Of a stretch of 64,000 nucleotides of DNA, positions 1 to 63,000 are shown in pieces. The position numbers were made by a program, and so were the translations under genes. The stretch comes from Eledone cirrhosa (taxonomy: Eukaryota), in assembly GCA_964016885.1 (NCBI GenBank), contig OZ024742.1:151776001-151840000 (forward strand), in the 5' to 3' direction. A model generated the notes under the pieces. That model was given only the letters and a program-made list of their open reading frames with translations, searched no databases and was not told the origin of the DNA. How positions within the stretch are numbered: position 1 is the first letter of the stretch; each line of letters starts with the position of its first letter.

Positions 1-1
1 A

Positions 2-1396
2 AATAAGGCACTAAATTACGCATTCAAACATACAGACCTAACTAGCAATGAAATGCACATTATATTATCGGCTAGGAAAACATTGATAGAATTTAATGAC
101 CAACTATGGACCTGAGCAGATAGAGATAGCAATTTTGACATTACTATGGGATCATCCGACTCAGCTCAGGTAACTGACCTTGTGGGCTTATTTTTAATCA
201 ATTCGCTGCATAGGAAAATACCTGGTACTACCGGAGGTTTATATAGAGATGACATGCTTTTACTTATTGATAATAATAACTCTGAACTAAATAGAAAAAG
301 AAAACAAATTACACAATTTTTTAATTACTTTAATCTAAAAATAGAAATTGAGAATAACCATAGATTAGTCAATTTCCTAGATATAACATTCAATCTCAAC
401 ACATGTCTTCACTATCCATTTCACAAGTTGAATGAAAACTTAAACTATGTCAGCTTTAACTCTAACCACCCCAGATCTGTTAAAAATACTATAGTAAACT
501 CTGTTCAAAAACGTATCTCTAGAATCTCGTCTAATAGAAAGATTTTCGACAAAAAAGCCCAATACTACAATGAAGCGTTAGCTAGAGCAGGATATAGTGA
601 TAAAATTATGTACATAGATAATGATAGACAAACTAAACAAAATAACAACTATTTTAATTACGGCCACAACCTTAACAACTATAATAGAAAGCATTACAAT
701 AATTCCAAAAGCCAAAAAAGAAATAGAACTAGGAACATAATATGGTTTGCCCCCCCTTTCTCACTAAACATTAAAACCCACATCGCTAAACTATTTTTTA
801 AAGCTCTTGATAATCGATTCCCTAGAACACATAGGTGTCACTCAATTTTCAATAGACATACTATAAAATTAACCTACTCATCCACCAAAAATTTAGCACA
901 AAATATTAATAGAATAAATAATAGGAATTTAAAACCTAGCGATAATAGCATAAATAATATACAAGTTAACAAATGTAACTGTAGAGATAGATCTAAATGT
1001 CCGTTAAATAACAACTGCTTAGTTAAAAATATAATATACAACTGTAATGTTAAAACGGACTTTAATTCTTTTAACTACGTTGGTTCCACATCGACGGAAT
1101 TTAAACTTCGCTATAATAACCACAAGAATTCTTTCACAGATCCAAGCAAAAAATCTTCAACAGCACTATCAGGCGTACTCTGGCAACTTAGGCATGATAA
1201 CGTTAGATATTCGACGGCTTGGAATATAGTCTCAAGAGGGATTCCTTTTAATTCATCCTCTGAGACATGTGACCTCTGCGCGGAGGAGATATTCTTTATA
1301 CTAAAATCTAAAAATTCCCTTAATCTACGGACAAATTTATTCAGTTGCTGCAAACATAGATTGAACTCAACTTTTAAATATAAATTTAAATTTTAA
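2..1396 (+). pseudogene. PLE reverse transcriptase + C-terminal GIY-YIG endonuclease (runs off window start; in-frame TGA at 113-115)
   Basis: YRDD catalytic motif; CNCR..CPL...C linker; IIY..YVG..FK.RY.NH GIY-YIG; CDLC..E and CKH terminal motifs. The frame is open upstream of 146 except for one TGA. Confidence 0.88.
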
Positions 1397-2706
1397 ATGT
1401 AGTATATTTAGTTTGATTTGTAATTATTTATGAAACTAGCCGATAAATCTTTCGATTTCTTCTTTTTATTCTTCTTTTTATTTTTATTTTAAACATTCTT
1501 CATGAAAAATTAAACTACCCTAAAAGTTGATGCTCCAGATATATCGAATAAATGTTACACTTGATAAACTTCTATATTAAATATAAGAACATATGTAGAC
1601 CTAATGGGTATCCTAAACTTTTGAAAAGATTTCTGCTAGACAGGATTTGGTAAATAATTTTTGGTTTTATCTGTTTTCGACTCTGATGCTTATAATGAAC
1701 TTGGCAATATATTGTCAATTAACTTTGAAGGGTTGATCTTTGTGGTCGTTTTGCGTGGCATACTATGTTTTTATTATAATTATTTTAATATTTTTTAATA
1801 TTTTTAATATTTTTATTTTTAATATTTAATATTTTTTAGTTTTCTGTTTTATTTATTTATTATTATTATTATTATTTTTTGTTTTTGTTTCTGATATTTT
1901 TATTAATATATTGAAATCTGTTCTCTATTTCTGCTTGATAGATAATCATGTAGAGTAAAGACAAGAATAGTATTGTTAAAATTAATATAGACTCTATACA
2001 TATGTGTATATATACACATATATGTATACTTAAATTTTTATAGCACAATGAGAATGTTCTCCGTGTGAAATAGGAGTTTGCAGAGCTGATCACGTAAATT
2101 CACATCGATGTTTGTAATTATGATATAAACATATGAATTTTTAAAACTAGACATAAGATCATTACTTTTCACACATTATAGATACGTGTCTCATTCATGA
2201 ATACTGATATTTACATTATAGTGCCTGTTTTTATACGAACTAATATTTCTACATTGAAACATAGGGTTTTAAATTCTGCCTCGCCTATGTCTGGTTATTT
2301 TTCATTTTTTTCTCTCTATATAACGGCTGGTTTCTCTCCTAACCACATATATCTCCCTTACATTAATACTAGAGCTAAATAAATAAATAAATAAATAAAT
2401 GTATCATTGATACGTCATTCAACGGATGTTCAACTACCTACTTTTCTCTATATATATCTATCTCTATCTATTTCCTCTCTCTATATATCTCTCTCTGTTT
2501 CTTTACATGAAGTTCTTCTCTTTATCTCTCTTTTCATCTCTCTATTTAGTTGCATGCATTTCTTCTTTTTCTTCGTTTTCTTTCTTTCTTTCCTTCTTTC
2601 TTTCTTTCTTTCTGTTTACAATTTTCACTGCCAAATCAACTTTTCAAATGCAAGTCGATGTTGAAAGGTATGTCAAATCTATTTATTTATAAAACTGTCT
2701 ATATTG

Positions 2707-2773
2707 TATTTTGTCTCTAAGAAGGCATAACATATTGTTAATATGATATCTCTGAAATATATATAATGAAATA
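2707..2773 (+). ncRNA. Degenerate type I hammerhead in PLE 3' end
   Basis: tattttgt-[ctctaaga, mutated core]-stem II-GAAA-tatata-TA-atgaaata. The intact homolog is at 59481-59546. Confidence 0.6.
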
Positions 2774-2813
2774 AATATGGTTTTATAAATATAGTTTCCA
2801 TTTATTTAATATC

Positions 2814-2849
<36 letters not shown>

Positions 2850-2856
<7 letters not shown>

Positions 2857-3135
2857 TGAAAAAGAACAAAGGAACTATTATGACACTATAACAAGTTTAT
2901 TGCCGACAGCCGTTTCGTCCGACCACATGGTGGGTTTTTCAAGGCATATAACATGTGACTGTAAGATCATTATCTACATCAACGTATCACTCAAGGCTAG
3001 CATAATAGTTCCTTTGTTCTTTTTCACTAATATTTCTGCTCTGCGTATACGCATAGAGCTTAACTAGCTACCGTCACATATTTGGTAGGACAGACGTGAT
3101 CATCGCGATTCACATACGACCTACCATACATCTTA
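2850..3135. mobile_element. Small PLE-type foldback insertion in (AT)n containing an HHR-like motif (2901-2946, minus)
   Basis: Perfect 33-bp inverted repeat 2850-2882/3001-3033. Minus strand reads tgcc-TTGAAAA-hairpin-GAAACGGCTGTC-ggca-ATAAA. Confidence 0.65.
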
Positions 3136-3329
3136 TATATATATATATAAAGTAAGTCCATATAATCATTAGATAAAATATATACAGTATTTCTAATGAT
3201 TCTATGGACTTACTTTTTATATATTGCTCTTATTATTAATTATTTAAATTAATTCGTCATTCAGCCACACCGTGAATGGTTGCCAAAACATATATATATA
3301 TCTATGGCTCTGTCTAGTTTATATGTATA

Positions 3330-4224
3330 CTAGCATTAAAGCCCGGCGTTGCTCGGGGTTAGTAAGTTACCAAAGTTAGGTTGCACCACCCATTTTATGG
3401 CAGCACTTTTTTGTCTGCCAGGCACTGGTTGAATGAATTGCAAACCTGGACTGCCAAAGCAGGAGCTGCGCCAGCAGTAACAATTGTAGTTTCGCCTATG
3501 GATATTATCTCTGTGCAAAGAAGTGTTGAAATTTATTGTTTCACAGTACTTGCGCAACACGCGCGTAGACGATGCCAGCCGAACAACAGAGCTGCGATGG
3601 AGTTGTTCTGCATGGTTGTCTAATGTGTGTTTTCTAAATTTAAGACAGTAGGGAGGGGTATGATATGGGGGAGAGTTAACTGCTGTTTCTAGCAGGTTTA
3701 GTGACCTCATAGAGGATATGTGTTTTGTAAATTTAAGACAGTAGGGAGTGGTGTGATATGGGGCAGAGTTAGCTGCTGTTTCTAGCAGGTTCAGTGACCT
3801 CATAGAGGATATGTTTTCTAAATTTAAGACAGTAGGGAGTGGTGTGATATGGGGGAGAGTTAGCTGCTGTTTCTAGCAGGTTTAGTGACCACATAGAGGA
3901 TATGTTTTCTAAATTTAAGACAGTAGGGAGGGGTGTCATATGGGGGAGAGTTAGCTGCTGTTTCTAGTAGGTTTAGTGACCTCATAGAGGATATTATTGT
4001 GTATCATCATTATCTATAAAAGGCAGATTGTTGTTGTTGTGTGTGTGTGTGCATGTTCTTTGACCGTTCCACACTCAAAAAGAAACGTTCTCTCTCTCCC
4101 TCTCACTCTCTCTCTCTCTCTTCGGCGTTCCTAAAGAAAGTTTGCAAGTTTAATCGTATATCAAAAACAAACGTTCTCTCGTTCTCTCTCCCCCCTCTCT
4201 CTCTCTCTCTCTCTCTCTCCCTCC

Positions 4225-4306
<82 letters not shown>

Positions 4307-4593
4307 TAAAGTTTGTAAGTTTAATCATTATCTAAGAGAAAGTTGCAGCATGTATGTAGTTTTATCGAATTTTAAGGGGAGTAGAGAGGGGTAAAGCGTC
4401 ATGTATTTAGTTTTATCCATTATATCCGTAATTGTGGGTGAGTGTGAATGAAATAAATAGTCGTTGATCTAAGTTAGACCATTTACAACATTCTTACAGA
4501 CTTTGAGTTGAATCGGTTTGAAATTGTGCAAATGTATAAACATGGAACATGCACACACACACACAACAACAATCTGCCTTTTATAGATAATGA
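3330..4593 (-). mobile_element. Non-autonomous Helitron
   Basis: Minus strand starts TC(ATTATCTATAAAAGG) and ends in hairpin CCCGAGCAACGCCGGG + CTAG. Inserted between A and T with no TSD; the empty site gtata|taccct is seen in the host-repeat copy at about 5276-5286. Confidence 0.88.
3625..3993. repeat. Minisatellite, four copies of ~91 bp, inside the Helitron
   Basis: aaatttaagacagtagggag recurs at 3636, 3729, 3820 and 3911. Confidence 0.95.
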
Positions 4594-4797
4594 TACCCTT
4601 TAAATTATATATACTCCCGTAAGGTTGAGTAAAACTTTGGGCAGTATTCCGCTGCGCTTTCTAGCAACCAGCCTACTCGCTGACAGGCACCCATCACAAA
4701 CATTCTGCTTTGACCACTAGCAACGTAACGATTCTTAGCCATTTTGAAATCGTATCTGGCGGGGATCATGTTAGAAAATTCTTTGTCCAATTGAGTT

Positions 4798-4881
4798 TAT
4801 CTCCTGATGATTTCCAACCTCGTTGATTTATCCAAGATCGGATATATCCATAAAGTGAATGAACCAGCGGGTGTAGAGATA
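4798..4881 (+). ncRNA. Type I hammerhead with large domain II (one core substitution, GAAC)
   Basis: tatctc-CTGATGA-(50 nt)-GAAC..GTA-gagata; perfect 6-bp stem I. Confidence 0.7.
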
Positions 4882-5320
4882 TTTTGATGATTTTGGTATG
4901 TTTATGTACATTTTTCTTCTAACTTTGATTTTGTACCTAATTATGTATGGTTAACTATATGTCTAGTCAATTTCTACAGGCTATCAGAAATACTAGGTCA
5001 ATTTTCTGTAGCTGTGAGTCGCGGATAAAAAGCTATATCATTTATCTATTGTTTCTTCATAAGTATATTTTAAATTTATAGGCTCGTTTAAATGATTTTT
5101 TGTGTGGTTGATTTATGCTGATTGGGAGAAGAAATACTGTATATATTTTATCTAATGATTCTATGGACTTACTTTTTATATATTGCTCTGATTATTAATT
5201 ATTTAATTAATTCGTCATTGAGCCACACCGTGAATGGTTGCCAAAAACATATATATGGCTCTGTCTAGTTTATACGTATATACCCTCTAAATTTTTAATA
5301 TATATATATATACATATATA

Positions 5321-5686
5321 ATAATTGTTTCTACTTTTGGCATAAGGCCAGCAAATACTCAGTGTATTACTGGTACTTTATTTTATCGACCCCATAAGGA
5401 TGAAAGGCGAAGTTAATCTCGACGGGATTTGAACTCAGACCGTAAAGGGACGTTACTACGTTAGAAAGCATGGCGTCCAATCCTCTACCGATACAGCCAA
5501 ATAATAATTGTTTCTACATTTGGCAGAAGGCCAGAATTAACCAGTACATTACTGGTACTTTATTTTATCGATCCCGTAAGGATGAAAGGCAAAGTTAACC
5601 TCGGCGGGATTTGAACTCAGAATTGCAAGGGCCGTAACTCTATGCGTCAAAGTATGGCGTCCGACCTTCTACCGATACTGCCAATC
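5321..5686 (-). mobile_element. Two adjacent tRNA-derived SINE copies (Meta-domain-like core)
   Basis: B-box-like GAGTTCAAATCCC and core GCCTTTCATCCTTA(C/T)GGG(G/A)TCGATAAAATAAAGTACCAG; copies at 5321-5500 and 5501-5686. Confidence 0.85.
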
Positions 5687-6239: not shown

Positions 6240-6800
6240 GACTTGATACCGAAGGGGAGTGGAGGTAGTTCTGACTATTCACAGAAGACACATTTCTGAC
6301 CCCGTCACTTCTCGTTTCTTTCTTAACCCACTCATCACCGCATTCAAGTGCGCCTGTAATATCCGTGGCCTCCTTGTGCACAGTTCCTTCTCCGCCTTCC
6401 CTAAGATTCCAGTCACTGTTCTCACTCCCTTTGTAATACATATTAAACATCACTACCCCCACATGTACGAACCATTTTTTCGCATTTGCGTCTCCTTAAC
6501 TTGCGTCTCTACCAACGTTTATGCCGTCTGGTATTCCCTTTGCGGGTCTATATATGTCGGACAAACAGGCTGCCATTTGCCGGCTCGATTCGCCGAACAA
6601 CTGAGGTACATACGACTGGGAAAACACACCCCTGTAGCGCGTCACGTCCATTCTCTCAACCACACTACTCAATAACTCACTGTCTCACGCCTCACTTTAC
6701 ACCACGGGTCCCCAGCCACACACATCAGGATAGAGTAGAATTTAATTTTTCGCCTTAGAACTACTTTTCTGAATGGACTCAATCCCTACTATATCCAGCA
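6240..6800 (+). pseudogene. Degraded PLE GIY-YIG endonuclease (Penelope/Neptune-type, distinct from the Naiad-like copies)
   Basis: NIRGLLVHS; TCVSTNVYAVW.SLCGSIYVGQTG..L.ARFAE.LR.I....TPVARH. Confidence 0.8.
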
Positions 6801-9557: not shown

Positions 9558-9561
9558 TATA

Positions 9562-9812
9562 TACTATAAATTATGTCCATAGAATCATTTGATAAGATAT
9601 ATACACAATTTCCTCTCCCAATTAGCATAATCAACCACACAAAAAAACAATTAAACCAGGCTATAAGATTAAAAGGCATCTATAAAGAAATAATAGATAA
9701 ATAAACGACTGCCATCTATTCGCGATCAACAGCTATAGAATATTTACCCAGCATTTCAATAGCACGGGGAAATCGATTAAATATATCGTCAACCATACAC
9801 AATTAGGTATAA
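9562..9812 (-). mobile_element. Truncated, divergent third member of the ~690-nt HHR element family
   Basis: Shares blocks (tgtgtatggttgacgatatattt; gtgtggttgattatgctaattgggag; aatgattctatggac) with 4930-5170 and 58020-58260. Flanked by (AT)n. Confidence 0.75.
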
Positions 9813-9851
9813 ATATATATATATATATATAGCGAGAGAGGGAGAGAGGGT

Positions 9852-10250: not shown

Positions 10251-10461
10251 GGCGGTGGATTGGCAGAGGGCGGTGGATTGGGAGTAACGGTAGAGAATCG
10301 GACACCATACTTTACAGCATAGAGTTATGGCCCTTTGCGGTCTGAGTTCAAATCATGCTGAGGTTAACTTTGCCTTTCATCCTTACGGGCTCGATAAAAT
10401 AAAGTACCAGTAATGCACTGGGATTAATGCTGGCATTGTGCCAAAAGTAGAAACAATTATT
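10251..10461 (+). mobile_element. tRNA-derived SINE (duplicated head)
   Basis: GGCGGTGGATTGG head twice, GAGTTCAAATC, core domain, tail GTAGAAACAATTATT. Confidence 0.85.
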
Positions 10462-11050
10462 TTATAAAATTTCACCAATAGAGAGGGGGGGGGGGCGATT
10501 TCTAGCGTAGACACAGGACTCTTTCATTGGGATTTACACCAACTAGGTAAATATGTCTGCATGTCTGCATGTGCGCTTGTCCTTGTCTGTGTGTGTGTGT
10601 ATGCGTGCGTGTGTGTATGCGCGCGCGCGTGTGTGTGCAGGTATTCATATTACTGTATGTGTGGATTTATATGTTTTAAGTTATATGTGTACACGTGCAT
10701 ATGTTTTGTATCTATACCTGTGTATATGCAGTTATTACATGCATAATATTAATGGCACTTTATTTTATACAGTTCCATTAATGGGTTGTACTTTTAAGGT
10801 TATAAACTAGTCGTGTTCTTTTTGTTTCTATGAACCTAGCTTCTCAAGATTTGTACTGAGGCATTTAGTAAAATATCACTGAGCCCCAATGATCACAGGT
10901 ATAAATCTTAAGGTATAGTCAGGGTGGAGAATCTGCAGATTTCTCATCAGATCTGCATAAATATTCCCCTTTTCGCTAATATTTAATATTATATTGGCAT
11001 CTGCTGGGCAGCTGACTTCCACTACTGTGCATGCCTTTTCCCTGTCCCGT
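10462..11050 (-). mobile_element. Second, diverged 3'-end copy of the R4/Dong-like LINE
   Basis: Colinear similarity to 11075-11600. Confidence 0.7.
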
Positions 11051-12761
11051 ATCACTATATGTATGTTCTTCTAGTTTTATAATTTCACAAATTTTTACCA
11101 ATAGAGAGAGAGTCGGTTTCTAACATAGACACAAGACACTCATTGGAATTTACACAACATCAACTAGGTAGATTATGTATGCATGCCTGCATGCATGCAT
11201 GCATGCATGTGTAGATATGGACGTTATTTTATGTGTGTATGTTTTGAGTTGTATATGTTTATGCTTTGTATCTGTACATGTGTATATGCAGTTATTAGAT
11301 GCAAAATTTTGGGAATGTTTTACATATTTTTACTTGTAATTTCCTAACTAGTTGTGTTCTTTCTGTTCCTGTGAAGCCTAGCTTCTCAAGATTGATTTGT
11401 ATTGAGGCAGTTACTAACATACCCCAGTGCCCCAATAATCACAGGCATACATCTGAAGGTGTAATCAGGGTGGAGTATCTGCAGATTCCTCATCAGATCT
11501 GCATAAATATTCTCCTTTTCGCTAATCTTTGATATTATATTGGCATTTGCCGGGCAGCTAGTTTGCGTTACTGTGCATCCTTTCTTTTCCATGTCCCATA
11601 TCATAATATCTGGTCTGTTATGCCTGCATTTTATTGGAGTTTTTACTGGAACATTCCACCAGTAGTCTTTCATATTATGTATATGGATGTCTTCCACATT
11701 GCTGTAGCTTTTAATGTGTTTATTATTGGGGCTATCTTTTCTACGGATTGCATTGTACAGTGTTTTGGCCACTACATCATGCCTCATAGGTAGATAGTAC
11801 CGCGATGATATCTTTGGGCTGCTGCTGATGACATGGGTGACATCTTCGATGTTAATTCTGCAGAGTCTGCACTTGTTATCACATCTAGGTGTTTTGCCTG
11901 CATCCCTATCTCTTTTGTGAATCTGGTATTTCGTGTTAATTTCCTGTTCTTGGATTGCAAAAGCGTATCCTTCAAAGTGGGAGCTAATATAGCGGTTGTT
12001 GGTCCAAGATAGACTACTTTCCTTATCTATATTACTCTCACTCTGGAGCTTCCTCGCAACATATCCATGCATGATTTTTTGCTGATAAGCATGCAGTTTT
12101 TCATCCATGGATTCTCTGCGATACTGCTGAGCGACTTCCCTGGGTGTGAGTTTTTGATTATCACACAGGGAATATCTCTCGAGGAGTTCCATCCCAACTC
12201 TCATGATCTTATCTGTTTCATGCAGATAGACATGCTCGAGAGACGGGCTCCTACGCTTCGAGGTTCGTAGATGTTGTTCATCTGTGATGATGTTATTATT
12301 TTCACGGTGATCTTGGAGGAATAAATTCAGGCAGGCTGTATACATCTTATACATCAGGCTCTGGCATGCAATGGTTCGATCGATTTTTGCCAAGTGGGAG
12401 TCTTTGTTCTTGGGCCTAGTAATGTTTGTCAACCATTCTGGTATAAGTGTATCTCCCTGAAGAACTTGTTGGTAGAGGTCAGCAAGATACCTCCGATAGA
12501 ATATCAGTTTTTTTGTACCAGTAGCCGACAATCATGTCTCTACCTGGTGTTTTCTTATCTTGGGGTTTTCCTATCACAGCCTCAAGAGTAGCCTCACTTA
12601 TTTCCTATGTTTTTGTTATAGTGTAGGAGCAATAGTTCTTTCGGATTTCTTTTAGCCACACTGCATCTTGGTTGAAATTCTTCTTTTCACCCCATATTTT
12701 TCCCCAAAAGGAATCTGTCTTTCTGGGATGGGGCCTCATCGACACTTATTATTTTGCTCTT

Positions 12762-12886: not shown

Positions 12887-13590
12887 TTGTCTTCATATCT
12901 CTATAGAGTGATGTTTGGTTTCGTCTGAATCTTTTATTAAGCACTTTTCTTTCATCTACTTTCTTCATGTACCAGCGTTTTTCGCTATCAGCTCTCAATT
13001 TTTGTTTGAGGGTGATCAGCTTCTATTGAACAGTTATGGTTCTACTGTTACCAAACATCGTCTCTATTATATTTTTCACTCTTTGTTGGTGAGGAGTGAG
13101 TTTCTTTTGCGTTTGTTTGCATGTAAGTAGCATTGTCATATATCCTATGGTTTTTCGTAGGTCAGCAACCTTTTTTTCTATTTTAGTTATATATGATGGT
13201 ATTTTTTGTGGTGTTTACTACTTGTTAATATATCTACTATCACCAAGATAATGTTTCACTGTCGTTTCTAGGGCATATAAATAGGCGTTGATTTGCCAAA
13301 ATGTTGGGGATTTTATCCGTCGTAAATATTCATCCCCTATTTCGTCAATAACACGTGATATTTCATTATTTGGTTTTTTATTAAATATTGTTGTTTCAAT
13401 ACGTTCAGCAAGAGAGATATTTATACACGAATTAATTAATCTCTGGAAGAATTCGTTGAGGGAAATTTTCAATTGTTTATACTTTTGATTATTATCATTA
13501 TCGATAGTATTTTCCACAATAGTCGAGAGTGGCTCGGATAGTACACGTGGTGTCAAATGTCTTCGATTATTATTATTATCGATAGTGGAG

Positions 13591-13783
13591 GGCGGTGGAT
13601 TGGCAGTATCGGTGGAGGGTCGGACGCCATGCTTTCCAGCATAGTTACGTCCCTTTACAATCTGAGTTCAAATCCCGCCGAGGTTGACTTTGCCTTTCAT
13701 CCTTACGGGGTCGATAAAATAAAGTACAAGTAATGCACTGGGTAATTGCTGGCCTTGTGCCTAAAGTAGAAACAATTATTATT
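13591..13783 (+). mobile_element. Full-length SINE with TSD attattattatcgatagtg
   Basis: Head, core and tail present; flanking direct repeat. Confidence 0.88.
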
Positions 13784-17139: not shown

Positions 17140-19310
17140 ACATATGATTAATATTGAAGTGTTGGGTCGATGTCATATTGAATCTCTCATAATTCAATAT
17201 AGATCGCATTGGAGCAGACATGTTATAAGAATGGCAGGTCATTGTATTCCTATGCAATTAGCAATACAAAGCACGATTTAGTCAAAGGGAAAGGACCAAG
17301 GAATAAACTAAAACTCATGTATCAAGACTGCATCAAAAGTGCTTATAAGGTCAAAAACAAGAAAAGATAACTGGGAAGACATTGCCTAAGATTGATCATT
17401 TTGGAGGAAAAACAGTGTTTAATGGAAAACAGGAAGTTGAAGAATCTCGTGTGATGCATGAAAAATTAAATAGGGGTCTGAGGAAGGGTCTACACAATAT
17501 TACCTTACCTGGATTTTCAGATGTTCAAAATGACTTTATGTGCAATGTGTGGCCAAATTTGCCTCAATAAAGTTTGTCTTAGAAAACACCATAGAAGCAG
17601 CGTACAAAATGTTGTCGATTATGGTCTCTTTTGCATTTCTTCCTGTTGGAAGTGTGGAAAAAAATGTTGGTAGCCCGGTGGACTCAAACATCAAGTGAAA
17701 GCAAAACAGCGAACCAAATTGGAAGTACTGTTCATCCCTGCAGCTTATGGAATGTAAATCCTTGGCAGGGCTAAAGTGTCATGTTCGTTCCACCCATGTG
17801 TGAGAGAGGAATCGGGAACAACCGACTTTAGAGGAAGTGGCAGTAGCTGTCTCGAAGCTGAACCGTGGAAGGTGTCCAGGTATGGATGGCATACAGGCAG
17901 AGCTCTTACAATATGGTGGTGAGAAACTTCTGTGACATCACTCTTTTTTGGCAAGATATAGGCCAGTGAATCCGTTCATGAAGACTGAAAAGATGCAGTA
18001 ATAGTAGTCTTGTAGAAGGGAAGGGGTAACAAGAAGGAATTGTGAAAACTATAGGTGTATATCTTTGCTTTCTGTCGTAGGAAAAATTTTATGTAGGGTG
18101 CTTCCGGACCGTTTGCTGACATACATTGAAGATGCGGCACTACTGATTTGATCTCAGCTAGACAGCTTCAGGAGAATTGCATGGAACAGGGTTTGGATCT
18201 GTATCAGTTTATTCTCGATCTGACAAAAGCTTTTGATACTGTTAACAGAAATGCTCTGTGGAAGGTTCTCCAGAAACGTGGATGTTCTGATGAGTTTCAT
18301 GCTTTGGTTAGGTCTTTCCATGATGACATGAAGGCTTGGGTTAATGTCAGAGGTATCATGTCAGAGTATACCTCAGTGAAAAATGGAGTAAAGCAGGGGG
18401 ATATTCCGGCACCGACCCTATTTTCCATATACTTTGCGATGGTTTTCTATATTTTATTCAGGAATTGCAAGCATGGTGCTTACATCTACTATTGAACCTC
18501 TGGCAGTATATTTAACATCAGGCGCTTTGCTTTAAAACAAAAGAATTTACCTCTATCATAAGAGACCTTTTGTATGCAGATGATTGCGATCTTATAGCGC
18601 ACACAGAGACTGATATGCAACACATTTTGAATGGATTTTCTGATGCTTACACTGCCCTAGGATTGACTATCAGTCTCAAGTAAATCGTTATCATGTACCA
18701 ACCTGCCCCTGGTAAGCAGTGCAATGAACCAAATATATATGTGTATGGTAAACGACTTGGAGAGGTTGATCAGTTAGTTAAAGGAAAACGACCTCCACAA
18801 AAACGAAAAAAGAGGTATACGGATTTGTTGAAAGCCTCCTTAAAAGACGCTAACATCTCTGCTGATACATGGGAAAGCGTATCTGTTGATCATCGTAAAT
18901 GGAGAAAGATTGTACATGAAGGCAAAGCTGCTTTTGAAGCATCTTTAATCGCATACGAGAAAGCAAAAAGGGATGTAAGGAAAGGCATTGCTGTTACATT
19001 TCCAAACATGCAACGTCTGTGCAAGACTCTGCCTCAGCAAAGCTGAACTCGAAAGTCGTCTTCGCAATCATAAAGTGAGATCAGTGGTTAACTACTAGGC
19101 TACTGTCGGATATGCTACTCATCATACCTGTTAAGCATGTGGAAAAGAGTGTAGATCAGCAGGAGGGCCCAAACGACATGCAAAAGTACATGACGACCAG
19201 CTACAGCCGTCAATTGCCAGTGAATGTTTTTATCATGGTTGCCAACTCAGTGCAAGACATTTTAGATTATTGGCTGGGCTGTAAAGTTTCATCCGATTGC
19301 AGCAATTATT
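17140..19310 (+). mobile_element. Degraded RTE (BovB-like) LINE fragments
   Basis: ARQLQE.C.EQ..LY..F.DLTKAFDTVNR..LW; GVKQG...APTLF; LYADD; 3' fragments GKRPPQ.RKKRY.D.LK. Confidence 0.85.
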
Positions 19311-32909: not shown

Positions 32910-33107
32910 ATAACAAAAATAATATTGCTAATGTTACATAAATCGTTTAATCATTATAATCACTTCCACGGTTCTCCATGTTATCGAGAAGTCTTTCGTG
33001 CATTTGTTGTTGTTATGAGAACGGTATCCCCGATTGCATGGAGAACCGTGGAAATAATTGTAATGATTAAACGATTTATGTAACATCATCATTATTATTT
33101 TTGTTAT
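32910..33107. repeat. Small foldback (~70-bp arms) with a degenerate HHR-like motif
   Basis: 32910-32980 vs 33037-33107; acggt..accgt-g-GAAA-taattg-TA. Confidence 0.6.
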
Positions 33108-33112
33108 TGCTA

Positions 33113-33305
33113 GGGCGGTGAATTGGCAGTATCGGTAGAGGGTTGGACGCCATGTTTTCTAGCAAAGTTACGTCCCTTTTCGGTCTGAGTTCAAATCCCG
33201 CCGAGGTTAACGTTGCCTTTCATCCTTAAGGGGTCGATAAAATAAAGTACCAGTAATGTACTGGGTAATTGCTGGCCTTGTGCCTAAAGTAGAAACAATT
33301 GTTAT
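33113..33305 (+). mobile_element. Full-length SINE
   Basis: Head, core and tail of the family. Confidence 0.88.
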
Positions 33306-33396
33306 TTTTATAAAAATCTCCATCGTACCTACAAACTATGAATGTTGAGAGCTTTACCCTGCTTACACCTGTTTTTACCAAAACAATCTCTTCGGA

Positions 33397-35461: not shown

Positions 35462-35542
<81 letters not shown>

Positions 35543-35558
35543 TAAAATAACAGATTCA

Positions 35559-35609
35559 AGTTTAAGCAAAGAATCGCTGCTTTCACTCTTAACGGGATCT
35601 TCTGAAACT
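35559..35609 (-). ncRNA. Hammerhead-like motif with CAGAAGA core
   Basis: Reverse complement of 38450-38500. Confidence 0.6.
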
Positions 35610-36538
35610 AACAAAGTCAATCTGTAAACGCAGAAGTGAATATTTCAAAAAACGTTGCAACCGGAGGAAGACAGGAAGACGATACTTTGGTTCGTGGAAA
35701 GGTTCCCTGGCAAAGAACGGGAAAAACGAATATAATACGTCATTATTTGGAGCGGTGAAAAAGAATTACACGCAAAGACAGAACCACGTTTATGGCATAA
35801 AAGAAGTCGTAGACTAATATTCTCTAAGTGGTGCATAGAGACGTTCTCTGGCAATGAACGGAAAAAACGAAGAAAATACGTCATATCTGGAGCGTGGAGA
35901 ACAATTGCACGCAAAGACAAAACCACGTAAATGGTATAACTGAAGTCGTAGACTAAAATTCTAACTAGGAAACCGAATGATTCTCCGCTTCAGAGTTAAG
36001 AATAAAGTAAATAAAATACAGAGGTAATTGAAATTAAATAAATACATACACGCATCCAAATACAGACATATACAAGCATACGCGAAAAGACTCGCCATAG
36101 GTATACAAATACTAGCACATATAAATATGTGTGTGTGTGTGTGTGCGTGTATACAAATAATTAAATAAAGGTATATAAATAAATAAATAAGTATATAACA
36201 AGCGCACACACATACCTACATGCAACTACCCAAATGTTCGGAAACGTACGTCAACCAAAACACGAAGTACACATATACACACACCCTACATACCTACGAA
36301 CCCGTATACTCACGCAGACGCAAAACACACGTATACACATAACCAAAAGCATATGTACCAGAATATATAAAAAATATACGCCATAACATATACAATCAAA
36401 TGTACGTACGAGAAAGTATACGTACCTTCACAAAACATACAGGTAATATATACTTACCTATCCAAATAGGCAACGGTATAAACATAACATATACTTAGCT
36501 ACCACATCAAGTCGTAAAATATCCGCGTATAGATCGTA

Positions 36539-37476
36539 CTATCCGTTAGGGTATAATGTGGGGCTGTAATACAGGAAAGTTTTGGGCAATTTATGTTTAC
36601 AAGCCGAAATTGCCTCAGATTTTTTGTTTAAGATGTGGTCTGAGGCGTAGAGTATTTCCAGGGCCACAGCGGCGCAGAGGTCACATGGTCTTTTATTTCC
36701 GTTATACGATCTAGCCCTAGCTAGGATCTCCCAGTGTAACTTATATTGGGTGTGGTTGTCTTTTAGACTCCAGATATAAGCTGAAAGTGACGTCATATTC
36801 CTTCTTAGAGGGTAACGAAAAGAATGGGTATGCATGTAAAGACGCTGCTTGAATTTATTGGCGGTTAACCCTATGTAGGCCCTACAGGACGTGGGTGTTT
36901 CAACCTTACATTTGTAGACAATGTTACTAGAGAGGCATTTCCCGGATAGGGCGCAATCAACCCGATTCCTACAATTACAGTTAGTACAAACTACAGAGTG
37001 CACGTGTTGCTACGGCTAGGTAGTTTAGCTAAATTTGAAGCTGTGATGTTATGTGCAAGGTTAGGAGTCGTAGAGTAACAAACTTTAATAGTATTTCTAT
37101 TAACAATTTTACTATATTATGTGTAGGGGGAAAATGCTTCGTAATAAGGGATAGAAAGATCTTAGCTAATGGTGTGGCCATCTCCATTTTATATGGTGGG
37201 TTATACCATATAATGCATCGGGATCTATTTCATCTAGGTCTATTCTCGTACTCTGTATATGCTACCTTATCGACAAATCCACTCCGGGAAAGAGCTTCAT
37301 TGTAATATGTGGAATGGTCGTTGAAAATACGCTCGTTAGTAGATAGACTGGAAAGCCTCAACGAAACGTTTCTTACCAGGTTCTTGGTTATGCTGGCAGG
37401 ATGGTTGGAATGCTTACTTATGTAATTAAGCGTATCATTCGGCTTTCTATACGGGTAATACAAGCCATTCGATAAA
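36539..37476 (-). pseudogene. PLE thumb + GIY-YIG endonuclease remnant
   Basis: YRKPN..YI..SNHP; IIWY.PPY; CNCR..C.L.GKCL..NIVY..YIG.T..FKQR..H; CDLC; CKH. Confidence 0.9.
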
Positions 37477-38449
37477 TTGTAAACATAAATTACACAAAAC
37501 TTTCCTGTATTACCGCCCCACATTATACCCTAACGGATAGTACGATCTATACGTGGATATTTTACGTCTTGATGTGGTAACTAAGTATATGTTATGTTTA
37601 TACCGTTACTTATTTGTATAGGTAAGTATATATTACCTGTATGTTTTGTGAAGGTACGTATACTTTCTCGTACGTATATTTGATTGTATATGTTATGGCG
37701 TATATTTTTATATATTCTGGTACATATGCTTTTGGTTATGTGTATACGTGTGTTTTGCGTCTGTGTGAGTATACGGGTTCATAGGTATGTAGGGTGTGTA
37801 TATATGTGTACTTCGTGTTTTGGTTGACGTAGTTTCCGAACATTTGGGTATTTACATGTAGGTATGTGTGTGCGCTTGTTATATACGTATTTATTTATTT
37901 ATATACGTTTATTTAATTATTTGTATACACGCGCACACACACACACATATTTATATGTGCTAGTATTTGTATACCTATGGCGAGTGTTTTCGCGTATGCT
38001 TGTATATGTCTGTATTTGGATGCGTGTATGTATTTACTTAATTTCAATTACCTCTGTATTTTATTTACTTTATTCTTAACTCTGAAGCGGAGAATCATTC
38101 GGTTTCCTAGTTAGAATTTTAGTCTACGACTTCAGTTATACCATTTACGTGGTTTTGTCTTTGCGTGCAATTGTTCTCCACGCTCCACATATGACGTATT
38201 TTCTTCGTTTTTTCCGTTCATTGCCAGAGAACGCCTCTATGAACCACCTAAGAGAATATTAGTCTATAAACGTGGCTCTGTCTTTGCGTGTAATTGTTTT
38301 TCACCGCTCCAAATAATGACGTATTATATTCGTTTTTCCCGTTCTTTGCCAGGGAACCTTTCCACGAACCAAAGTATCGTCTTCCTGTCTTCCTCCAGTT
38401 GCAACGTTTTTTGAAATATTCACTTCTGCGTTTACAGATTGACTTTGTT

Positions 38450-38500
38450 AGTTTCAGAAGATCCCGTTAAGAGTGAAAGCAGCGATTCTTTGCTTAAACT
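38450..38500 (+). ncRNA. Hammerhead-like motif with CAGAAGA core
   Basis: agttt-CAGAAGA-tccc..gagt-GAAA-gcag..ttgc-TT-aaact, followed by AATAAA. Confidence 0.62.
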
Positions 38501-39582
38501 TTAATCTGATATTTTAATAAATAACAGATTCTTATATATTTGATATATATTTAACCTCATCGAGCCCTCTTTGGATTTTAGTCTTCATATTTATTATTAT
38601 TACTATATATATATATATATATTTGGGGTGGGTCATATTTGTGTAATATTGCCAGATTTAATAACAGAACACACTCACTGTTTTGTTGGTTTTCGCTTTT
38701 CGCTTCTGTGTCTTTTATATCGGTAGTCTAATTTATTCGGTCCTCAATGTTGCCATTGACTGACCAACGGTCAAAAATACAGATACAATGTAGACACAAA
38801 CACATATATATAGTTTATCAAAGTTCTTTCGCTGCACATCTGCAACATCGTCAGTAGTGCTATTGTTTCTTCCCGTTGCATTGTATTTTCTACGCCATCT
38901 TTATTTAGTCTGTTTATATATTTATTTATTTGTTTATTTTATTTTGTCTTCTTTGCGCATGCGTGTGTGTATAGTGTTTTGTTTGATGTGTGTTCGTGAT
39001 TGGGTGACTGCGTATTGGTTAATGTATTTTATCTTTACTAGTGTGTGTTTATGTGTTTGTTGTTATTGTGCTTGTGTATGTATTTATTTATTTATTTATC
39101 TATTTATTTATTTATCTTCTCTTAGGTCAGAGTTGTTTGTTTGGGTGTTGTTGTTATTCCATTCATTCTTTCTGTTTAGCCTTGGCCTTCTAACTTCTAT
39201 TTCACTGGCCTCTTTGATTTGTCTATCTGCTGGGTCATTTCTATGTTTAGATATTATTCTAATTTCTATGTTGTCTATGTTACCGTCGTGTTGTTGTCTG
39301 GCATGTTCGTATAGTACATATATATATATATATATGTTTAGCGATTTTGCTGAAAAATAGCTTGCTTAGTATAATCATTGTATATCCCGTGGTGTATCTA
39401 TAGATCACATATATGTAACCCTCACACACACACGTACTCACGATCAAAAACCCACCCCCTCACACACACACTTATATATATATATATATATCGAATATAA
39501 TTCACCGAAAATTAACATTACCATGCTATAAAATACGCAATACATATAATTCTAATACATTATTATTATTGATGTCTTTGAA

Positions 39583-39775
39583 AGGCGGTGGATTGGCAGT
39601 ATCGGTGGAGGGTCGGACGCGATGCTTTGACGTATAAAGTTACGTCCCTTGCCATTCTGAGTTAAAATCTCGCCGAGGTTAACTTTGCCTTTCATCCTTA
39701 CGGGGTCGATAAAATAAAGTACCAGTAATGCACTGGGTAATTTGCTGGCCTTGTGCCAAACGTAGAAACAATTAT
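39583..39775 (+). mobile_element. Full-length SINE with TSD attattattattgatgtct
   Basis: Head, core, tail and flanking direct repeat. Confidence 0.9.
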
Positions 39776-39933
39776 TATTATTGATGTCTACAACCGTCTC
39801 AATTAGGTCTCGGAACTTCATCAGGGTGAATACGTCTATTCTTTCCTGACAATGTTGTGTGAGTGGACCCAAAAGTGTGATCTAACAAGTAGGGTCAATA
39901 TTCAAATACTAAGTTGGTCTATATATACATACA

Positions 39934-56891: not shown

Positions 56892-56920
56892 GTGGTTACA
56901 CAACAGTTAGTTCACCATAC

Positions 56921-56958
56921 CGAGAACAATTGTTTCACCTTAGCGTATCCTCAGCTCG
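56921..56958 (-). ncRNA. Minimal hammerhead (inverted pLTR copy)
   Basis: cgag-CTGAGGA-tacgctaaggt-GAAAC-aatt-GTT-ctcg. Confidence 0.72.
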
Positions 56959-57871
56959 TAATGGACATGGTTATACGGAAGAGGAAGGAGAACCGTACGA
57001 ACGCGCATGCGCAGAAACCGTCACTTCACAGAAGAAATACTAAAAAGCGTGCGAGAAGTGTAAGGGAGATAACTGCGAAAGTCCGAAAAGTACCTAGTTG
57101 ATAAGAAAATTAGGATATTGTTGTGATTCAATCCGGAACTTTGTAGTTAGGTCATAAATACCGCTCCATCTTTAAAGGACACAAAGATACTCCTGCGCTA
57201 AAGACATGAAGGCCCACATCACCAACAGCCCTAAGAGCAACACCCCACCAGGGTGCTCTTGCCGTAAGCACGAAGCTTGTCCCCTTCAACAGCAATGAAA
57301 CACACCCGCTGTAATTTATGAAGCTGTGGTCACTTCCAACCGATCAAACCAACCACAGTAGGTCAAATCCTATGTGGGTATGGCGAGGGCCGATTTAAGG
57401 AACGCTTCCTGAACCACCAGTCGACCTTTAGGTATCCCGACAGACGTTCATCCACGAAACTCGCGAGCCACGTATGGCCCCTCAAGGACTCAAGTATAGA
57501 CTACTTCATTCAATGGAAAGCCATCACTAAGTCCAAGTCATACGCAAGTGGAAATCCGTCGTGTGGACTATGTATTGATGAACGAATAAATATTCTAAAG
57601 AGATTATGCAATAGTGATTGCCTAAACACGACAACTGAATTCTTCACACGTTGTCCACACGTTTTGAAATACCTCTTACATAACTACAAAGTTCCGGATT
57701 GAATGACAACAACATCCTAATTTTCTTATCAACTAGATACTTTTCGGACTTTCGCAGTTATCTCCCTTACACCTCTCGCACGCTTTTTAGTACTGCTTCT
57801 GTGAAGTGACGGTTTCTGCGCATGCGCGTTCGTACGGCTGTCCTTCCTGTTCCGTGTAACCATGTCCATTA

Positions 57872-57909
57872 CAAGCTGAGGATCCGCTAAGGCGAAACAA
57901 TTGTTCTCG
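57872..57909 (+). ncRNA. Minimal hammerhead in PLE pLTR
   Basis: caag-CTGAGGA-tccgctaaggc-GAAAC-aatt-GTT-ctcg. Confidence 0.75.
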
Positions 57910-58303
57910 GTATGTTGAACTAACTGTTGTCTAACGTCCCATGGACTGAGTGCTCTACCACTACGGATATTACCTTCCAGTGTTCTAACACTATATATAT
58001 ATATATATATATATATATCATAAAACATGTCTATAGAATCAATCAGATATTAAAATATATACTATTTCTTCCTCTAATCAGCATAATTAACCATATACAT
58101 AATCAAATCCAGCAAGCTTTAAGAGTAAATTTTCTAACGGGGAAATCTCCGACAAATAATTGATTGCAGCTAGTTCGCGTTAACTCCGTTCCATTATTTA
58201 TCAAACACTTCGGCAGCATGTAGAATCCGATCAAATATATCGTCAACCACACGTAATTAGTAGTAAAATTAAACTTAGAAGAAATGCGCACATACCGTAA
58301 TTA

Positions 58304-58383
58304 TATCTCTACCATGGTTTCTTCCTTGTTTAGGACATCCAAATAATATGGACTTGCCCGAGTCAGGTTATCATCAGGAGATA
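58304..58383 (-). ncRNA. Type I hammerhead, canonical core, large domain II
   Basis: tatctc-CTGATGA-(49 nt)-GAAAC-catg-GTA-gagata; predicted cut between 58310 and 58309. Confidence 0.85.
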
Positions 58384-58992
58384 AACTCAGAAATAGACAT
58401 TTAATTTCTCAGACCGACCCCGCCAAATTTAGATTCAAAAATGGCTAAGATCGCTATGTAGCTGTGTACCAGCCAGAGAGAAAGCGTGTGTTTGGTCGCT
58501 TACGGCGGGTAGGTATGCTGCTAGAAAGCGCAGCCATATAACGCCAAATTTAATCTCAACCGATAGGGAGATTATTAAATATAGAGGTTATCACATACAT
58601 AAAATTAAATTAAATTAAATCAAGGATACATATATGTGTTGCAACTGTTCACTTTTAAGCTCAATGAAGAATTAATAAGTTAAAATAAAAAAATCAGAGC
58701 ATTATATCATAAAACATGTCTATAGAATCAATCAGATATTAAAATATATACTATTTCTTCCTCTAATCAGCATAATTAACCATATACATAATCAAATCCA
58801 GCAAGCTTTAAGACTAAATTTTCTAACGGGGAAATCTCCGACAAATAATTGATCGCAGCTAGTTCGCGTTAACTCCGTTCCATTATTTATCAAACACTTC
58901 GGCAGCATGCAGAATCCGATCAAATATATCGTCAACCGCACGTAATTAGTAGTAAAATTAAATTTAGAAGAAATGCGCACATACCGTAATTA

Positions 58993-59073
58993 TATCTCTA
59001 CCATGGTTTCTTCCTTGTTTAGGACATCCAAATAATATGGACTTGCCCCGAGTCAGGTTATCATCAGGAGATA
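58993..59073 (-). ncRNA. Type I hammerhead, second tandem copy
   Basis: Same fold; predicted cut between 58999 and 58998. Confidence 0.85.
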
Positions 59074-59164
59074 AACTCAGAAATAAACATTTAATTTCTC
59101 AGACCGACCCCGCCAAATTTAGATTCAAAAATGGCTAAGATCGCTATGTAGCTGTGTACCAGCC

Positions 59165-59229
<65 letters not shown>

Positions 59230-59269
59230 GATATTAAACAAATGGAAACTATATTTATAAAACCATATT

Positions 59270-59335
59270 TATTTCGTTATATATATTTCTGGGATATCAT
59301 ATTAAAAATATGTTATGCCTTCCTCAGACAAAATA
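59270..59335 (-). ncRNA. Type I hammerhead (left arm of palindrome)
   Basis: Reverse complement of 59481-59546. Confidence 0.78.
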
Positions 59336-59480
59336 CAATACATAAGCTGTTTTATAAATAATTAGTGACATACCTTTTGAGAATGCAACTTCCTTTTAAA
59401 AAAAAATCAAATTTTTTTAAAAGGAAGTTGCATTCTCAAAAGGTATGTCACTAATTATTTATAAAACAGCTTACGTATTG

Positions 59481-59546
59481 TATTTTGTCTGAGGAAGGCA
59501 TAACATATTTTTAATATGATATCCCAGAAATATATATAACGAAATA
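59481..59546 (+). ncRNA. Type I hammerhead, canonical core
   Basis: tattttgt-CTGAGGA-interrupted stem II (catat/atatg)-GAAA-tatata-TA-acgaaata. Confidence 0.8.
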
Positions 59547-59674
59547 AATATGGTTTTATAAATATAGTTTCCATTTGTTTAATATCGTAAACCTACTCCA
59601 GAAACTGTCGAGTGCTTTTATATCTGTTATAAAATATTTACTCGTTGTAACCCAACAATCTTAAATAAAACTTT

Positions 59675-60066: not shown

Positions 60067-63000
60067 CTATCTATCTAAGGCGGGTAAAATTCCCGAGATC
60101 CATGGACGAGTTCTCTCCAGCGGTCTCTGTCCCTAATTATCGCTGCCATATCCTGCATCTCCAACAGACCAGTGTCTGTCCTTAGGGCATCAACATATGT
60201 TAACCTTGGTCTTCCTCTTCTAGTGTGTCAATGTAGGGGCTCCCAAAGGAGCACTGAGTGCAATGTCAACTCTGGATGTCGGTGAGCATGTCCAGCCAAC
60301 CTCAGTCTCCTCTGTGTCACTTTTGAGCTGACTTTTGGGATGCTCCCATACAGCTCTGAGATTTTCATCCTCAGTGTATACTGATTAATGTTCAGAGCCA
60401 TCCTCAGCATTCTCGTGTAGCACCCATCCAACATCTGAGTGAGTCTCTTGGTCAGTGTCCAAGTCTCAGACCCATACAGCAGCACAGACTCCACTACAGC
60501 AATGAAGAGGCGGATTTTCAGGTCTCTACGAAGGTCCGACTTCCACACCGATCTCAAGCTGTGACACGCCGCCCAGGCCTTGCTCTTCCTCTCAACCACA
60601 TCATCTTTCGTATTCCCAATCTTTGCTCCCAAATACAGGAAGTCCTCAACCAATTCCAGCGGCTTCCCGCCTACATTAGTGATCCCCTCTGGCTTCTCAA
60701 CATTCTCTACCAGATATTTTGTTTTAGTCTCATTCACGCTCAGCCCCACACTCATCGACACAGTCTCAACCTCCCGCATCAAATCCTCTGCCTCCTTCAC
60801 TGTATTTGTCACCAAAACTATGTCGTCGGCAAATTCAGCATCCGATACCTTTTTCGCCCCAACTCTCCTGCTCTGAGCCGGTGCTACAGTAAAGCCAGTG
60901 TCCTGGTGTTTCTCCAGTGCAAGGCGCATACAATAGTCCACTACGGTGATAAAAAGGTAGGGAGCCAATGTATCTCCCTGGAGCACTCCAGCCAGTATCT
61001 CAAAGAACTCTGTCATCCCATCAGGTGTAATGACTTGGGCTTTGGTGTTGGTGTAGAGCAGTGATATCAGGTCCACTATCTTCTTGGGGATTCCATAAGC
61101 CTGTAAGATCTTCATCAGGCAGTAACGGTCCACAGAATCAAAGGCCTTCCTAAAGTCAATGAAAACCATGACCGCAGGAAGGCACTTTGCTCTAGCTCCC
61201 TCTAATATCCTCCTCAGCATCAGGATGTGACTGGTGGTTTATCTACCCTCTCTGAAGCCGTTCTGATTGTCCCTGAGCTTCTTCTCCATCTCAGGCTGGA
61301 TCCTGTTAAGAATCATCCTGTTGAGGGTCTTTGCCACAAGTGACGTCAGTGAGATCCCCCGGTAGTTGTTGGTGTTAGAGAGATCTCCCTTCTTTGGCAC
61401 TGGGACGATGTTACTGATCCTCCACTGATTCGGGGCAACTCCTTTCTCCAGTGCCCCGTTACAGAACCCCAGGATGATATCATCAAAATCACACCTCTTC
61501 ATCACCTCTGATGCCACTCCATCTTCTCCATGAGCCTTGCCCTCCTTGATCTTCTTCTTGGCTCTCTGAAGCTCCTCTCTGGTGAAGGGCTCTGTCTCAA
61601 CATCCAGTTCCTCAAACAGCCGCCTGATCTCCCCAGTGCTCTGGGCTGTGGAGGGTGGCTCTCCTAGTAGGGTCCTAAAATGGTCTAGCCATTTCCTCTT
61701 CCTATCCTCGGGCCCCGTTCCCTGGATCTGACTCGAACACCTTTTCTTCCTCCCTGTGATCTCGTTGATGATCATCCAGCTCTCCTTACATCCAGATCTG
61801 TCAACCGCTCACTCCACACTTCTGATCTTCTCTATCAGTGCCTCCTCTCTGACCTCAGTGTAAGCGGTACAGAGCTCTTCCCTCATCACCTCCACAGTCT
61901 GCATCCTCTCCTCCGTAGGATCAGCATAGAATTGGTCCCTGGCAGCTTTCAGGTGTTCTCTGGCTGCACACACTTTTGGGCTTGCAGAGCTGACGTGCTT
62001 CCCTTTGTTCTTTTTCCTCAGCACCAGGGTTTCACTTGCTTTCGCCACTGCATTGGTGAAGTGCCCGTACCTCCTCGTCACACTCTCCTCAGTCCATCCA
62101 ATCTCTCTCTCCTCTGACTCTCCACACAGAGCACTAAACCTGTTTCTCACTTCCACTGTGAACCTCTCCTGTAGCTTATCATCTTCCTTGAAAGCTCCCC
62201 AGTCATAGATTGTTCTCCGGGGCTGAGCCTTGCTCTTTCTTAAGCTCACGCGGACCTCACTTATAACAAGCCGGTGGTCACTACCCAGTGTACTGAAATA
62301 GCTGTATGGTTCCGTGTTCAGAACACTATTCCGCCACTTTTTCTTCACCAGAATGAAATCAATCTGGGACTTGGACAGGTGCATATCTGAGATGTAGGTC
62401 CACATCTTCCCCAGATTCTTCCTAAACCTTAGGTTGGTCGCCATCAAGTTCGCCTCCAGCAGGGTGTCTCTCAGTAGTCTTCCATTTCGGTTGGTGTTGT
62501 TATGGAAGTACCAGCAAGGATCTTCAGTGCCCTCCTTACTCAGATGTGCATTGAAGTCCCCCAAAACAAGCAGGATATTGTGTGCCTGAGTGGTGTTGAG
62601 AGCTCTACACACCTCATCATGGAACTCCTAGGCATTCACATCACTGTCCCCCTCGGTTGGACTATAGGCTGAGATGACTGTCAGTCTTGGGTTTCCATTG
62701 AAGGTCACCCTCAACACTCGCGGGGAGATAGGCATTATTTCCCTCACCAACAGATTGGTTTTTGCACTGAACACGAAACCCACTCCTCCTACTGCAGCAT
62801 TTGTTGTGTTCTTCACTGCCGATGTAGTGATGAGCTGGCTCTTCCTCCCGATCATCACACTCCTCACGGGCTCATCGTGTAGAATCCTGTGTTCTTGGAT
62901 CGCAAGTATCTGTATACCACTCTCCTCGAACAGATGTCCCAACTCCTCTCTCTTCTCCAGCGTTCGAATAGTCCTCACATTCAAAGTGCCCATTTTGATG

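Follow-up and report, generated by a model that had tools for sequence, protein, structure and literature searches.

A non-coding ~690-nt hammerhead repeat of Eledone cirrhosa with predicted paired end hairpins in common with Hydra-type Penelope-like elements

The window analyzed here, a stretch of 64,000 nt from Eledone cirrhosa (assembly GCA_964016885.1, contig OZ024742.1, forward strand positions 151,776,001 to 151,840,000), contains two divergent copies of a protein-less repeat of about 690 nt, one at 3149..5297 and one near 58 kb, that start and stop at different points of the unit. The original prediction took them for different circular permutations of one closed element and proposed a circular or multimeric RNA template. 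Are the ends of this repeat free, as such a permutation would have them, what template was it copied from, and by what means does a repeat without a protein of its own move?

The copy at 3149..5297 and its relatives

The copy is decayed and spans ≈1.2 units, or 885 nt once a Helitron-like insert is excised. The inverted arm and the broken hammerhead core were absent from the original prediction. The features of the copy and of its relatives in the window are as follows:

3150..3194, minus strand: inverted arm, 5'-truncated, with its 3' end at the fixed site s1, where it joins (TA)n; circle positions 475 to 422
3195..3329, plus strand: start of the forward arm (a partial upstream turn), with a decayed s1 hairpin at 3226-3265
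3330..4593, minus strand: non-autonomous Helitron-like insert of 1,264 nt, A/CTAG...GA/T (slashes mark the junctions)
4594..5297, plus strand: rest of the forward arm, roughly one complete turn of 687 nt, which stops at site s2, where it joins (TA)n
4613..4630, plus strand: bulged hairpin (ACUC-CC/GG-UU-GAGU) directly 3' of s2, a predicted reverse-transcriptase positioning signal
4651..4764, plus strand: GC-richer conserved blocks with a predicted CUGC/GCA hairpin, a CCAAT word and a GCCA...UGGC pairing
4792..4881, plus strand: motif of a type I hammerhead ribozyme, here with a broken core; stem I 4798-4803/4876-4881, CUGAUGA 4804-4810, long stem II, cut after GUA (4875)
4792-4797, plus strand: predicted pseudoknot strand UGAGUU
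5185..5223, plus strand: bulged hairpin (GCUC-UGA...UCA-UU-GAGC) directly 3' of s1
9559..9813, minus strand: fragment of a further family of the ~690-nt unit, ending at about s1, (TA)n on both sides
58014..59165, minus strand: copy of sister family B, 1.67 turns of 689 nt, ending at s1 between (TA)n runs, with an intact hammerhead core

The insert has the 5' TC and the 3' CTAG with a subterminal hairpin of a Helitron, lies between A and T without a target site duplication (TSD), and holds a 91-nt tandem repeat. At other loci of its family the left end is identical in 14/14 cases and the right end reads GA/T in 7/14. All 14 loci listed follow a TA-rich tract, often TATA, and this family thus shares its targets with the ~690-nt elements, both window copies of which, like the relative at 9559-9813, lie in (TA)n runs.

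In the insert-free copy, shared 12-mers recur at offsets of 695 (35), 694 (19) and 687 nt (10). The predicted period of 695 nt therefore holds for part of the overlap, but the majority monomer of the family is 687 nt. A circular global alignment of the copy with the 689-nt unit of its 58-kb sister gave 472 identical columns out of 730 (64.7%) and a score of 460, against 102±16 (maximum 137) for 100 block-shuffled controls. The alignment goes round the whole circle without a break point, with 52–76% identity in 50-column windows, the weakest of which (52–58%) are close to the 51% of the shuffled background. The predicted colinearity was thus borne out, all seven of the shared blocks that had been quoted are present in both elements, and the alignment supports a closed ~690-nt unit kept through long divergence.

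The unit is one of several dispersed families. DNA searches of the 3.0-Gb genome returned 4,317 first-look candidates for the family of the copy at 3149..5297 (family A) and 1,991 for that of the 58-kb unit (family B); 40 per family were scored, and the figures should not be read as copy numbers. Exact matches to a shared 19-mer number 1,076, and in 20 regions drawn from the first 100 of these listed, further families were seen, with periods that include 642–667 nt. The majority monomers, of 687 nt and 690 nt, have a GC fraction of 0.34–0.35 and are non-coding, their longest ATG-initiated reading frames being 63 and 38 aa.

A sister family of 657–667 nt forms an array of ≈29 kb at G000:C1:92,986,000-93,016,000 (loci L250, L251, L270 and L271). 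It contains 43 or more units (43 measured), with core and stem I intact in 31/43, and is framed like a single insertion by an inverted s2 arm, an s1 end and TA flanks. We considered the possibility that it was one rolling-circle product, and rejected it on account of near-identical higher-order blocks inside the array, that is, later local duplications.

Several other repeats lie in the window. An abundant SINE-like repeat of ≈180 nt is in tandem at 5324-5686 and occurs in at least seven other places, e.g., 10266-10465, 13566-13783, 33087-33309 and 39558-39785. LINE-like remnants lie at 60228-63245 (minus strand; endonuclease- and reverse transcriptase (RT)-like frames broken by stops), 11386-12531 (minus) and 18130-19046 (plus).

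Insertion ends and the hairpins beside them

The first 100 listed of 122 exact matches to a family B probe comprised 63 insertions, all of which (101 segments) were used to map ends; for family A, 85 loci (139 segments) came from the first 100 of 296 matches listed, omitting three evenly spaced neighbors of one locus that are probable segmental duplicates. The 3' ends fall on two sites, s1 and s2, which are homologous between the families and 117–127 nt apart: s1 accounted for 57 segments, s2 for 31 and other positions for 13 in B, compared to 67, 40 and 32 in A, so that 88/101 and 107/139 are fixed. TA repeats follow 83 of these 88 and 94 of these 107 ends. The 5' ends are scattered in both families.

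Head-to-head inverted pairs are common (32 in 63 loci in B, 35 in 85 loci in A). Most combine an s1 with an s2 arm (23/32 and 20/35), an excess with p=1.5e-8 and p=3e-6 under independence; one of the 67 uses the same site twice, and the remainder have an arm elsewhere. When both arms end at a site, 43 of 44 pairs use one site per arm. The copy at 3149..5297 has this layout, its forward arm running to s2 and its inverted arm to s1, and the 58-kb copy runs to s1. The two insertions do differ in their end points, as predicted, but the permutation is not free: variation is confined to the 5' ends, the 3' ends being tied to two sites, and thus a choice of two fixed starts, followed by truncation on the 5' side, makes up the "different permutation" of the two copies. 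Fixed 3' ends with 5' truncation, an adjacent inverted truncated copy and a tail at one end only make up the insertion signature of Penelope-like elements (PLEs).

A candidate source of the enzyme for such insertions lies in the window itself:

1..2815, plus strand: copy of the PLE H1 (RT + GIY-YIG reading frame at 116-1396), ending at its own site 1

The full H1 unit is 3,859 nt long and has a 735-aa reading frame with RWR, DKT, YRDD and CNCRDRSKC motifs, a hammerhead-like motif, likewise with a long stem II, and (TA)n ends, which would place it among the Hydra-type PLEs. That clade is defined by an RWK-like motif, DKT, a CxCX5C linker, a C-terminal GIY-YIG domain, a hammerhead and (TA)n targets, all found in H1, but its members are generally <3 kb and the H1 unit is longer. 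Pfam gave no match for the full H1 reading frame, nor for five frames of the window; the Atlas neighbors of the H1 frame carry GIY-YIG/HTH_animal. No same-strand tandem pair of H1 was seen among the 98 best-scoring hits to its reading frame in a list read by eye. H1, present in the window at 1-2815 (plus) and 59221-59674, is young and very abundant, with many intact copies, and is a candidate mobilizing partner of the ~690-nt unit.

The window has two further Hydra-type PLE families, H2 and H3, at 35539-38520 and 56895-57935. Both are inserted in (TA)n as inverted arms joined head to head and carry a short hammerhead-like motif close to the 3' end. Between TA runs at 2854-3029 lies a 176-nt element with a 29-nt terminal inverted repeat; its minus strand carries a degenerate hammerhead-like motif, and it is probably a very small inverted insertion of a PLE end. 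A GIY-YIG-like fragment (IYVGQTG) at 6247-6675 (plus) apparently belongs to another PLE clade.

Within a few nt 3' of both s1 and s2 there is a predicted bulged hairpin, RCUC-stem-UY-GAGY. The pattern RCUC-stem-loop-UU-GAGY occurs exactly twice in each of A, B and the 3,859-nt H1 unit, always within a few nt 3' of the mapped ends and nowhere on the minus strands; 0.016–0.017 occurrences per shuffled monomer would be expected by chance. The closing pairs (A-U, U-A or G-C), inner stems and loops vary between sites. Most of the pairs are Watson-Crick, and UU or UC is the usual bulge, with UA in one family. Since the pattern came to light by visual inspection of A, B and H1, H2 served as an independent check; once the pattern was fixed, the hairpin was found after both H2 ends. 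These PLEs also place one arm at each site (14/20 loci in H1, 12/22 in H2); the H1 end sites are ≈86 nt apart, and the tail is ≈86–90 nt in H1 and H2. H3 has a hairpin with a one-base bulge at its first end, and a second hairpin, seen in one copy, does not fit the pattern. Two hairpins are thus common to the ~690-nt unit and to both ends of two intact Hydra-type PLE families.

This likeness is structural. A BLAST search of the unit against 40 loci of the three PLE families found no homology to their pLTRs, only an inserted copy of the unit and a 38-nt AT-rich hit. Descent of the unit from a PLE pLTR is therefore unsupported in these families and loci, there being no alignable similarity beyond the hairpin.

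The end hairpins also bear on the conserved blocks, some of which, upstream of the ribozyme, had been read as a possible internal promoter. A promoter reading is doubtful for TGCTCTGATT and TCATTGAGC, the last two of the quoted blocks, which form one strand each of the s1 hairpin. The "GC box" is not conserved, reading TGGCGCG in 66/247 matches, and its TGGC is able to pair with GCCA. The likenesses of the conserved blocks to YY1 and NF-Y sites are putative. The CCAAT word is conserved in 207/282 matches (some of them off-target) and mutated in the copy at 3149..5297; GCCA/UGGC and CUGC/GCAG can pair. The blocks at 4651..4764 may have a role as promoter or as RNA structure, and a putative internal promoter in the CCAAT/GCCATTTT region is possible.

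The hammerhead ribozyme and the template

Each unit has one type I hammerhead with a 6-bp stem I, CUGAUGA, a stem II of 4–5 bp that opens into an insert of ≈45 nt with a distal hairpin, GAAA, a short stem III and a cut triplet. To score covariation, 225 hits were grouped into 23 clusters, from which medoids and singletons were picked; with the two window copies added, the set numbered 17 sequences. Paired states fill 91.1% of the cells, three stem II pairs show two-sided change, and the covariation score of 0.258, which kinship among the 17 sequences can inflate, compares with 0.155±0.018 for shuffled sets and drops in slid controls. Stem II thus covaries, but two of five measures were no better than shuffles (165/500 and 422/500), and the 20-72 pair is unpaired in 10/17 sequences. 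Among 145 sequences, the cut triplet is GUA in 100, GUC in 32 and GUU in 1 (133/145 together). Loop II reads ACUC in 111/145 and CUC in 28/145, complementary to the invariant UGAGU that precedes stem I; a pseudoknot between them is a prediction from this complementarity, without covariation. Loop contacts of this kind are known in hammerheads (PMC3088659). In the copy at 3149..5297, GAAA reads GAAC, and its ribozyme is therefore probably dead. No hammerhead was among the 150 rows listed, out of 211, of an Rfam scan; these 150 were microsatellite-driven matches, nearly all to miRNA families.

Most cDNAs run across the ribozyme cut site (58/71 segments at risk in B, 79/90 in A), and a cleaved linear monomer is therefore not the main template. 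Segments longer than one unit make up 31/101 in B and 24/139 in A. Successive turns agree with each other in 597 of 617 diagnostic comparisons; the 20 discordant ones compare with ≈260 expected, and between the arms of one insertion 36/940 were discordant, compared to ≈394 expected. Two candidate proofs were set aside. The 5' ends in B pile up at the cut site (13/71, p=6e-5), but 6 of the 13 abut TA microhomology, without which 7/71 are left (p=0.024, uncorrected), and the excess in A is not significant (11/90, p=0.18); the pile-up was rejected as evidence of cleavage. Arms that end after exactly one turn were rejected as proof of a circle, since a bound hairpin explains the stops without one; in B, the s1 and s2 arms both stop near circle positions 579-603 (8/41 non-TA).

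The crossing of the cut site and the single haplotype over the turns support spread of the unit by RNA copying and not by local duplication, which the original prediction had doubted; the template would either exceed one unit in length or be a unit closed on itself. To this extent the predicted circular or multimeric template stands. We lean towards a circle: the hairpins lie beyond the copied end, and a linear cycle would therefore shorten the element each round. In full, we consider it likely that this non-coding hammerhead repeat, of the non-LTR retrozyme type, is trans-mobilized by a Hydra-clade PLE, with a circular monomer RNA as the probable template. The transcript would come from a tandem or partial-tandem copy, and two hammerheads would release a monomer whose ends stem I would hold together for ligation. 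The PLE protein would then bind both hairpins and nick both strands of a (TA)n target, with each nick priming at the TA tract 5' of one hairpin. Both cDNAs would be extended, often beyond the ligation point and one turn, ending in variable stops and head-to-head joining. Being 3' of the priming sites, the hairpins would be missing from new ends, and thus only more-than-unit copying would restore a working element.

A linear multimer as template is rather unlikely by our estimate. On this account the element and its PLE partner are the same, uncleaved RNA transcribed from genomic arrays is copied, the hammerhead plays a minor part, and DNA-level duplication or template jumps renew the arrays. 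The genomic multimers of 43 or more units, with the same layout of s2 arm and s1 end, could indeed supply such RNA, and the family B copies of 2.3–3.5 turns, the cDNAs that cross the cut site, the weak, dimer-type stem III helix of family B and the use of uncleaved RNA as the dominant substrate of the anole PLE PAc (PMC11167929) all agree with it. So does position 393, at which turns differ from each other in one and the same direction in three loci; two loci, L121 and L129, look chimeric. However, only 1/101 segments in B and 1/139 in A exceed two units, subfamily mutations are present in all turns, which calls for a monomer bottleneck, compensatory changes accompany the conservation of the ribozyme, and every round would lose at least the part beyond the last hairpin.

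It is improbable that the hairpins act in DNA instead, with the GIY-YIG endonuclease cutting a more-than-unit cDNA so that the fixed ends are cut sites, not priming sites. The mostly Watson-Crick pairs would fold on either strand, and the PLE tail has been ascribed to endonuclease resolution of an intermediate (PMC8557442). Against this, the RT starts of PAc in vitro coincide with the genomic ends and tail (PMC11167929), the ends lie at TA tracts able to pair with the target, and the excess of structure is on the ribozyme strand: circular folding gave z-scores of -3.1 (A) and -4.5 (B) for this strand, compared to -1.8 and +2.1 for the other (25 shuffles). The same strand-specific structure, together with the polar ends (fixed 3', variable 5'), the covarying hammerhead and the PLE-like layout, makes it scarcely credible that DNA mechanisms spread the unit as a satellite or MITE-like repeat whose likeness to a ribozyme is incidental. 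The one array with higher-order local duplication would suit a satellite. As for a MITE, which the original prediction had set against its own reading, the 3' ends are fixed, but terminal inverted repeats are absent and no TSD is visible in the mapped A and B insertions (the (TA)n flanks would hide one), and the inverted arms vary in length and junction.

Retrozymes, Penelope-like elements and a two-hairpin signal

The element class and the idea of a circle are already known; the paired end-hairpin signal is new as far as the accessible literature goes. Like the animal non-LTR retrozymes, the unit is a non-coding, low-GC repeat with one type I hammerhead (PMC7229834; bioRxiv 10.64898/2026.07.22.740005), occurs as anything from monomers to long arrays, and coexists with PLEs (PMC7229834). 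It also has two features described for axolotl, a basal U-U in stem II and a stem III of a single pair whose loop is palindromic (PMC7229834; bioRxiv 10.64898/2026.07.22.740005). The monomers here are 642–695 nt, compared to 170–400 nt for retrozyme circRNAs, for which, at their smaller size, circles have been demonstrated (PMC7229834); the 51–972 nt range of Li et al. 2026 covers 687 and 690 nt (bioRxiv 10.64898/2026.07.22.740005). The ≈45-nt stem II insert with its predicted pseudoknot is unlike the animal non-LTR retrozymes as described in PMC7229834. Li et al. argue that retrozyme-like repeats come from PLE pLTRs, and 24/57 Xenopus families have pLTR homology, whereas the ~690-nt unit has none that can be aligned (bioRxiv 10.64898/2026.07.22.740005). 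The accessible text of these retrozyme papers contains neither a map of insertion ends nor a cis signal in common with PLEs (PMC7229834; bioRxiv 10.64898/2026.07.22.740005).

On the PLE side, Hydra-clade insertions also show 5' truncation, partial tandems, an adjoining inverted truncated copy, a one-end tail, (TA)n targets and a hammerhead upstream of the ends, but the ~690-nt unit has no reading frame, and its tail of ≈117–127 nt (≈86–90 nt in H1 and H2) compares with the 30–40 nt described for PLEs; paired bulged hairpins are not mentioned in the accessible part of that description (PMC8557442). PAc, a Poseidon element, likewise has two internal start sites that bound the tail, AT-rich targets and an upstream hammerhead, and both target strands are nicked and extended, to which we liken the ~690-nt unit. 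The PAc starts lie in an AC-rich stem-loop without target homology, whereas here TA tracts lie 5' of a separate hairpin, one per site; in vitro, the anole PLE used uncleaved RNA and the hammerhead was dispensable (PMC11167929). The non-autonomous Chlamys PLEs such as MRC1 are also PLE-dependent and inserted as head-to-tail multicopies, but they have 3' sequence in common with their partners and mostly lack hammerheads, whereas the ~690-nt unit has only a structural motif in common (PMC8557442). A circular template was earlier proposed for PLEs (PMC4209133). No report of paired end hairpins common to a retrozyme and Hydra PLEs was found in the literature, mostly outside subscription journals.

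Tentatively, we propose that a two-hairpin code (a TA tract, then RCUC-stem-UY-GAGY), common to Hydra-clade PLEs and their retrozyme parasites, places two reverse transcriptases on a ribozyme-made circle, one per strand. Since the code lies beyond the copied end, rolling-circle copying would be obligatory, which would explain pLTRs, tail and inverted arms together.

How PLEs recognize their RNA, how tails and inverted arms arise and whether retrozymes move via circles are stated as open in the accessible parts of the cited literature. The family described here offers a protein-free substrate of 690 nt with two mapped start sites and a defined hairpin in common with intact local PLEs, which makes the questions of recognition, tail and circle simple in vitro tests. 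The cis signal ties animal retrozymes to a PLE clade beyond co-occurrence or sequence descent and, if it is portable, would be a compact handle for RNA-templated insertion at (TA)n.
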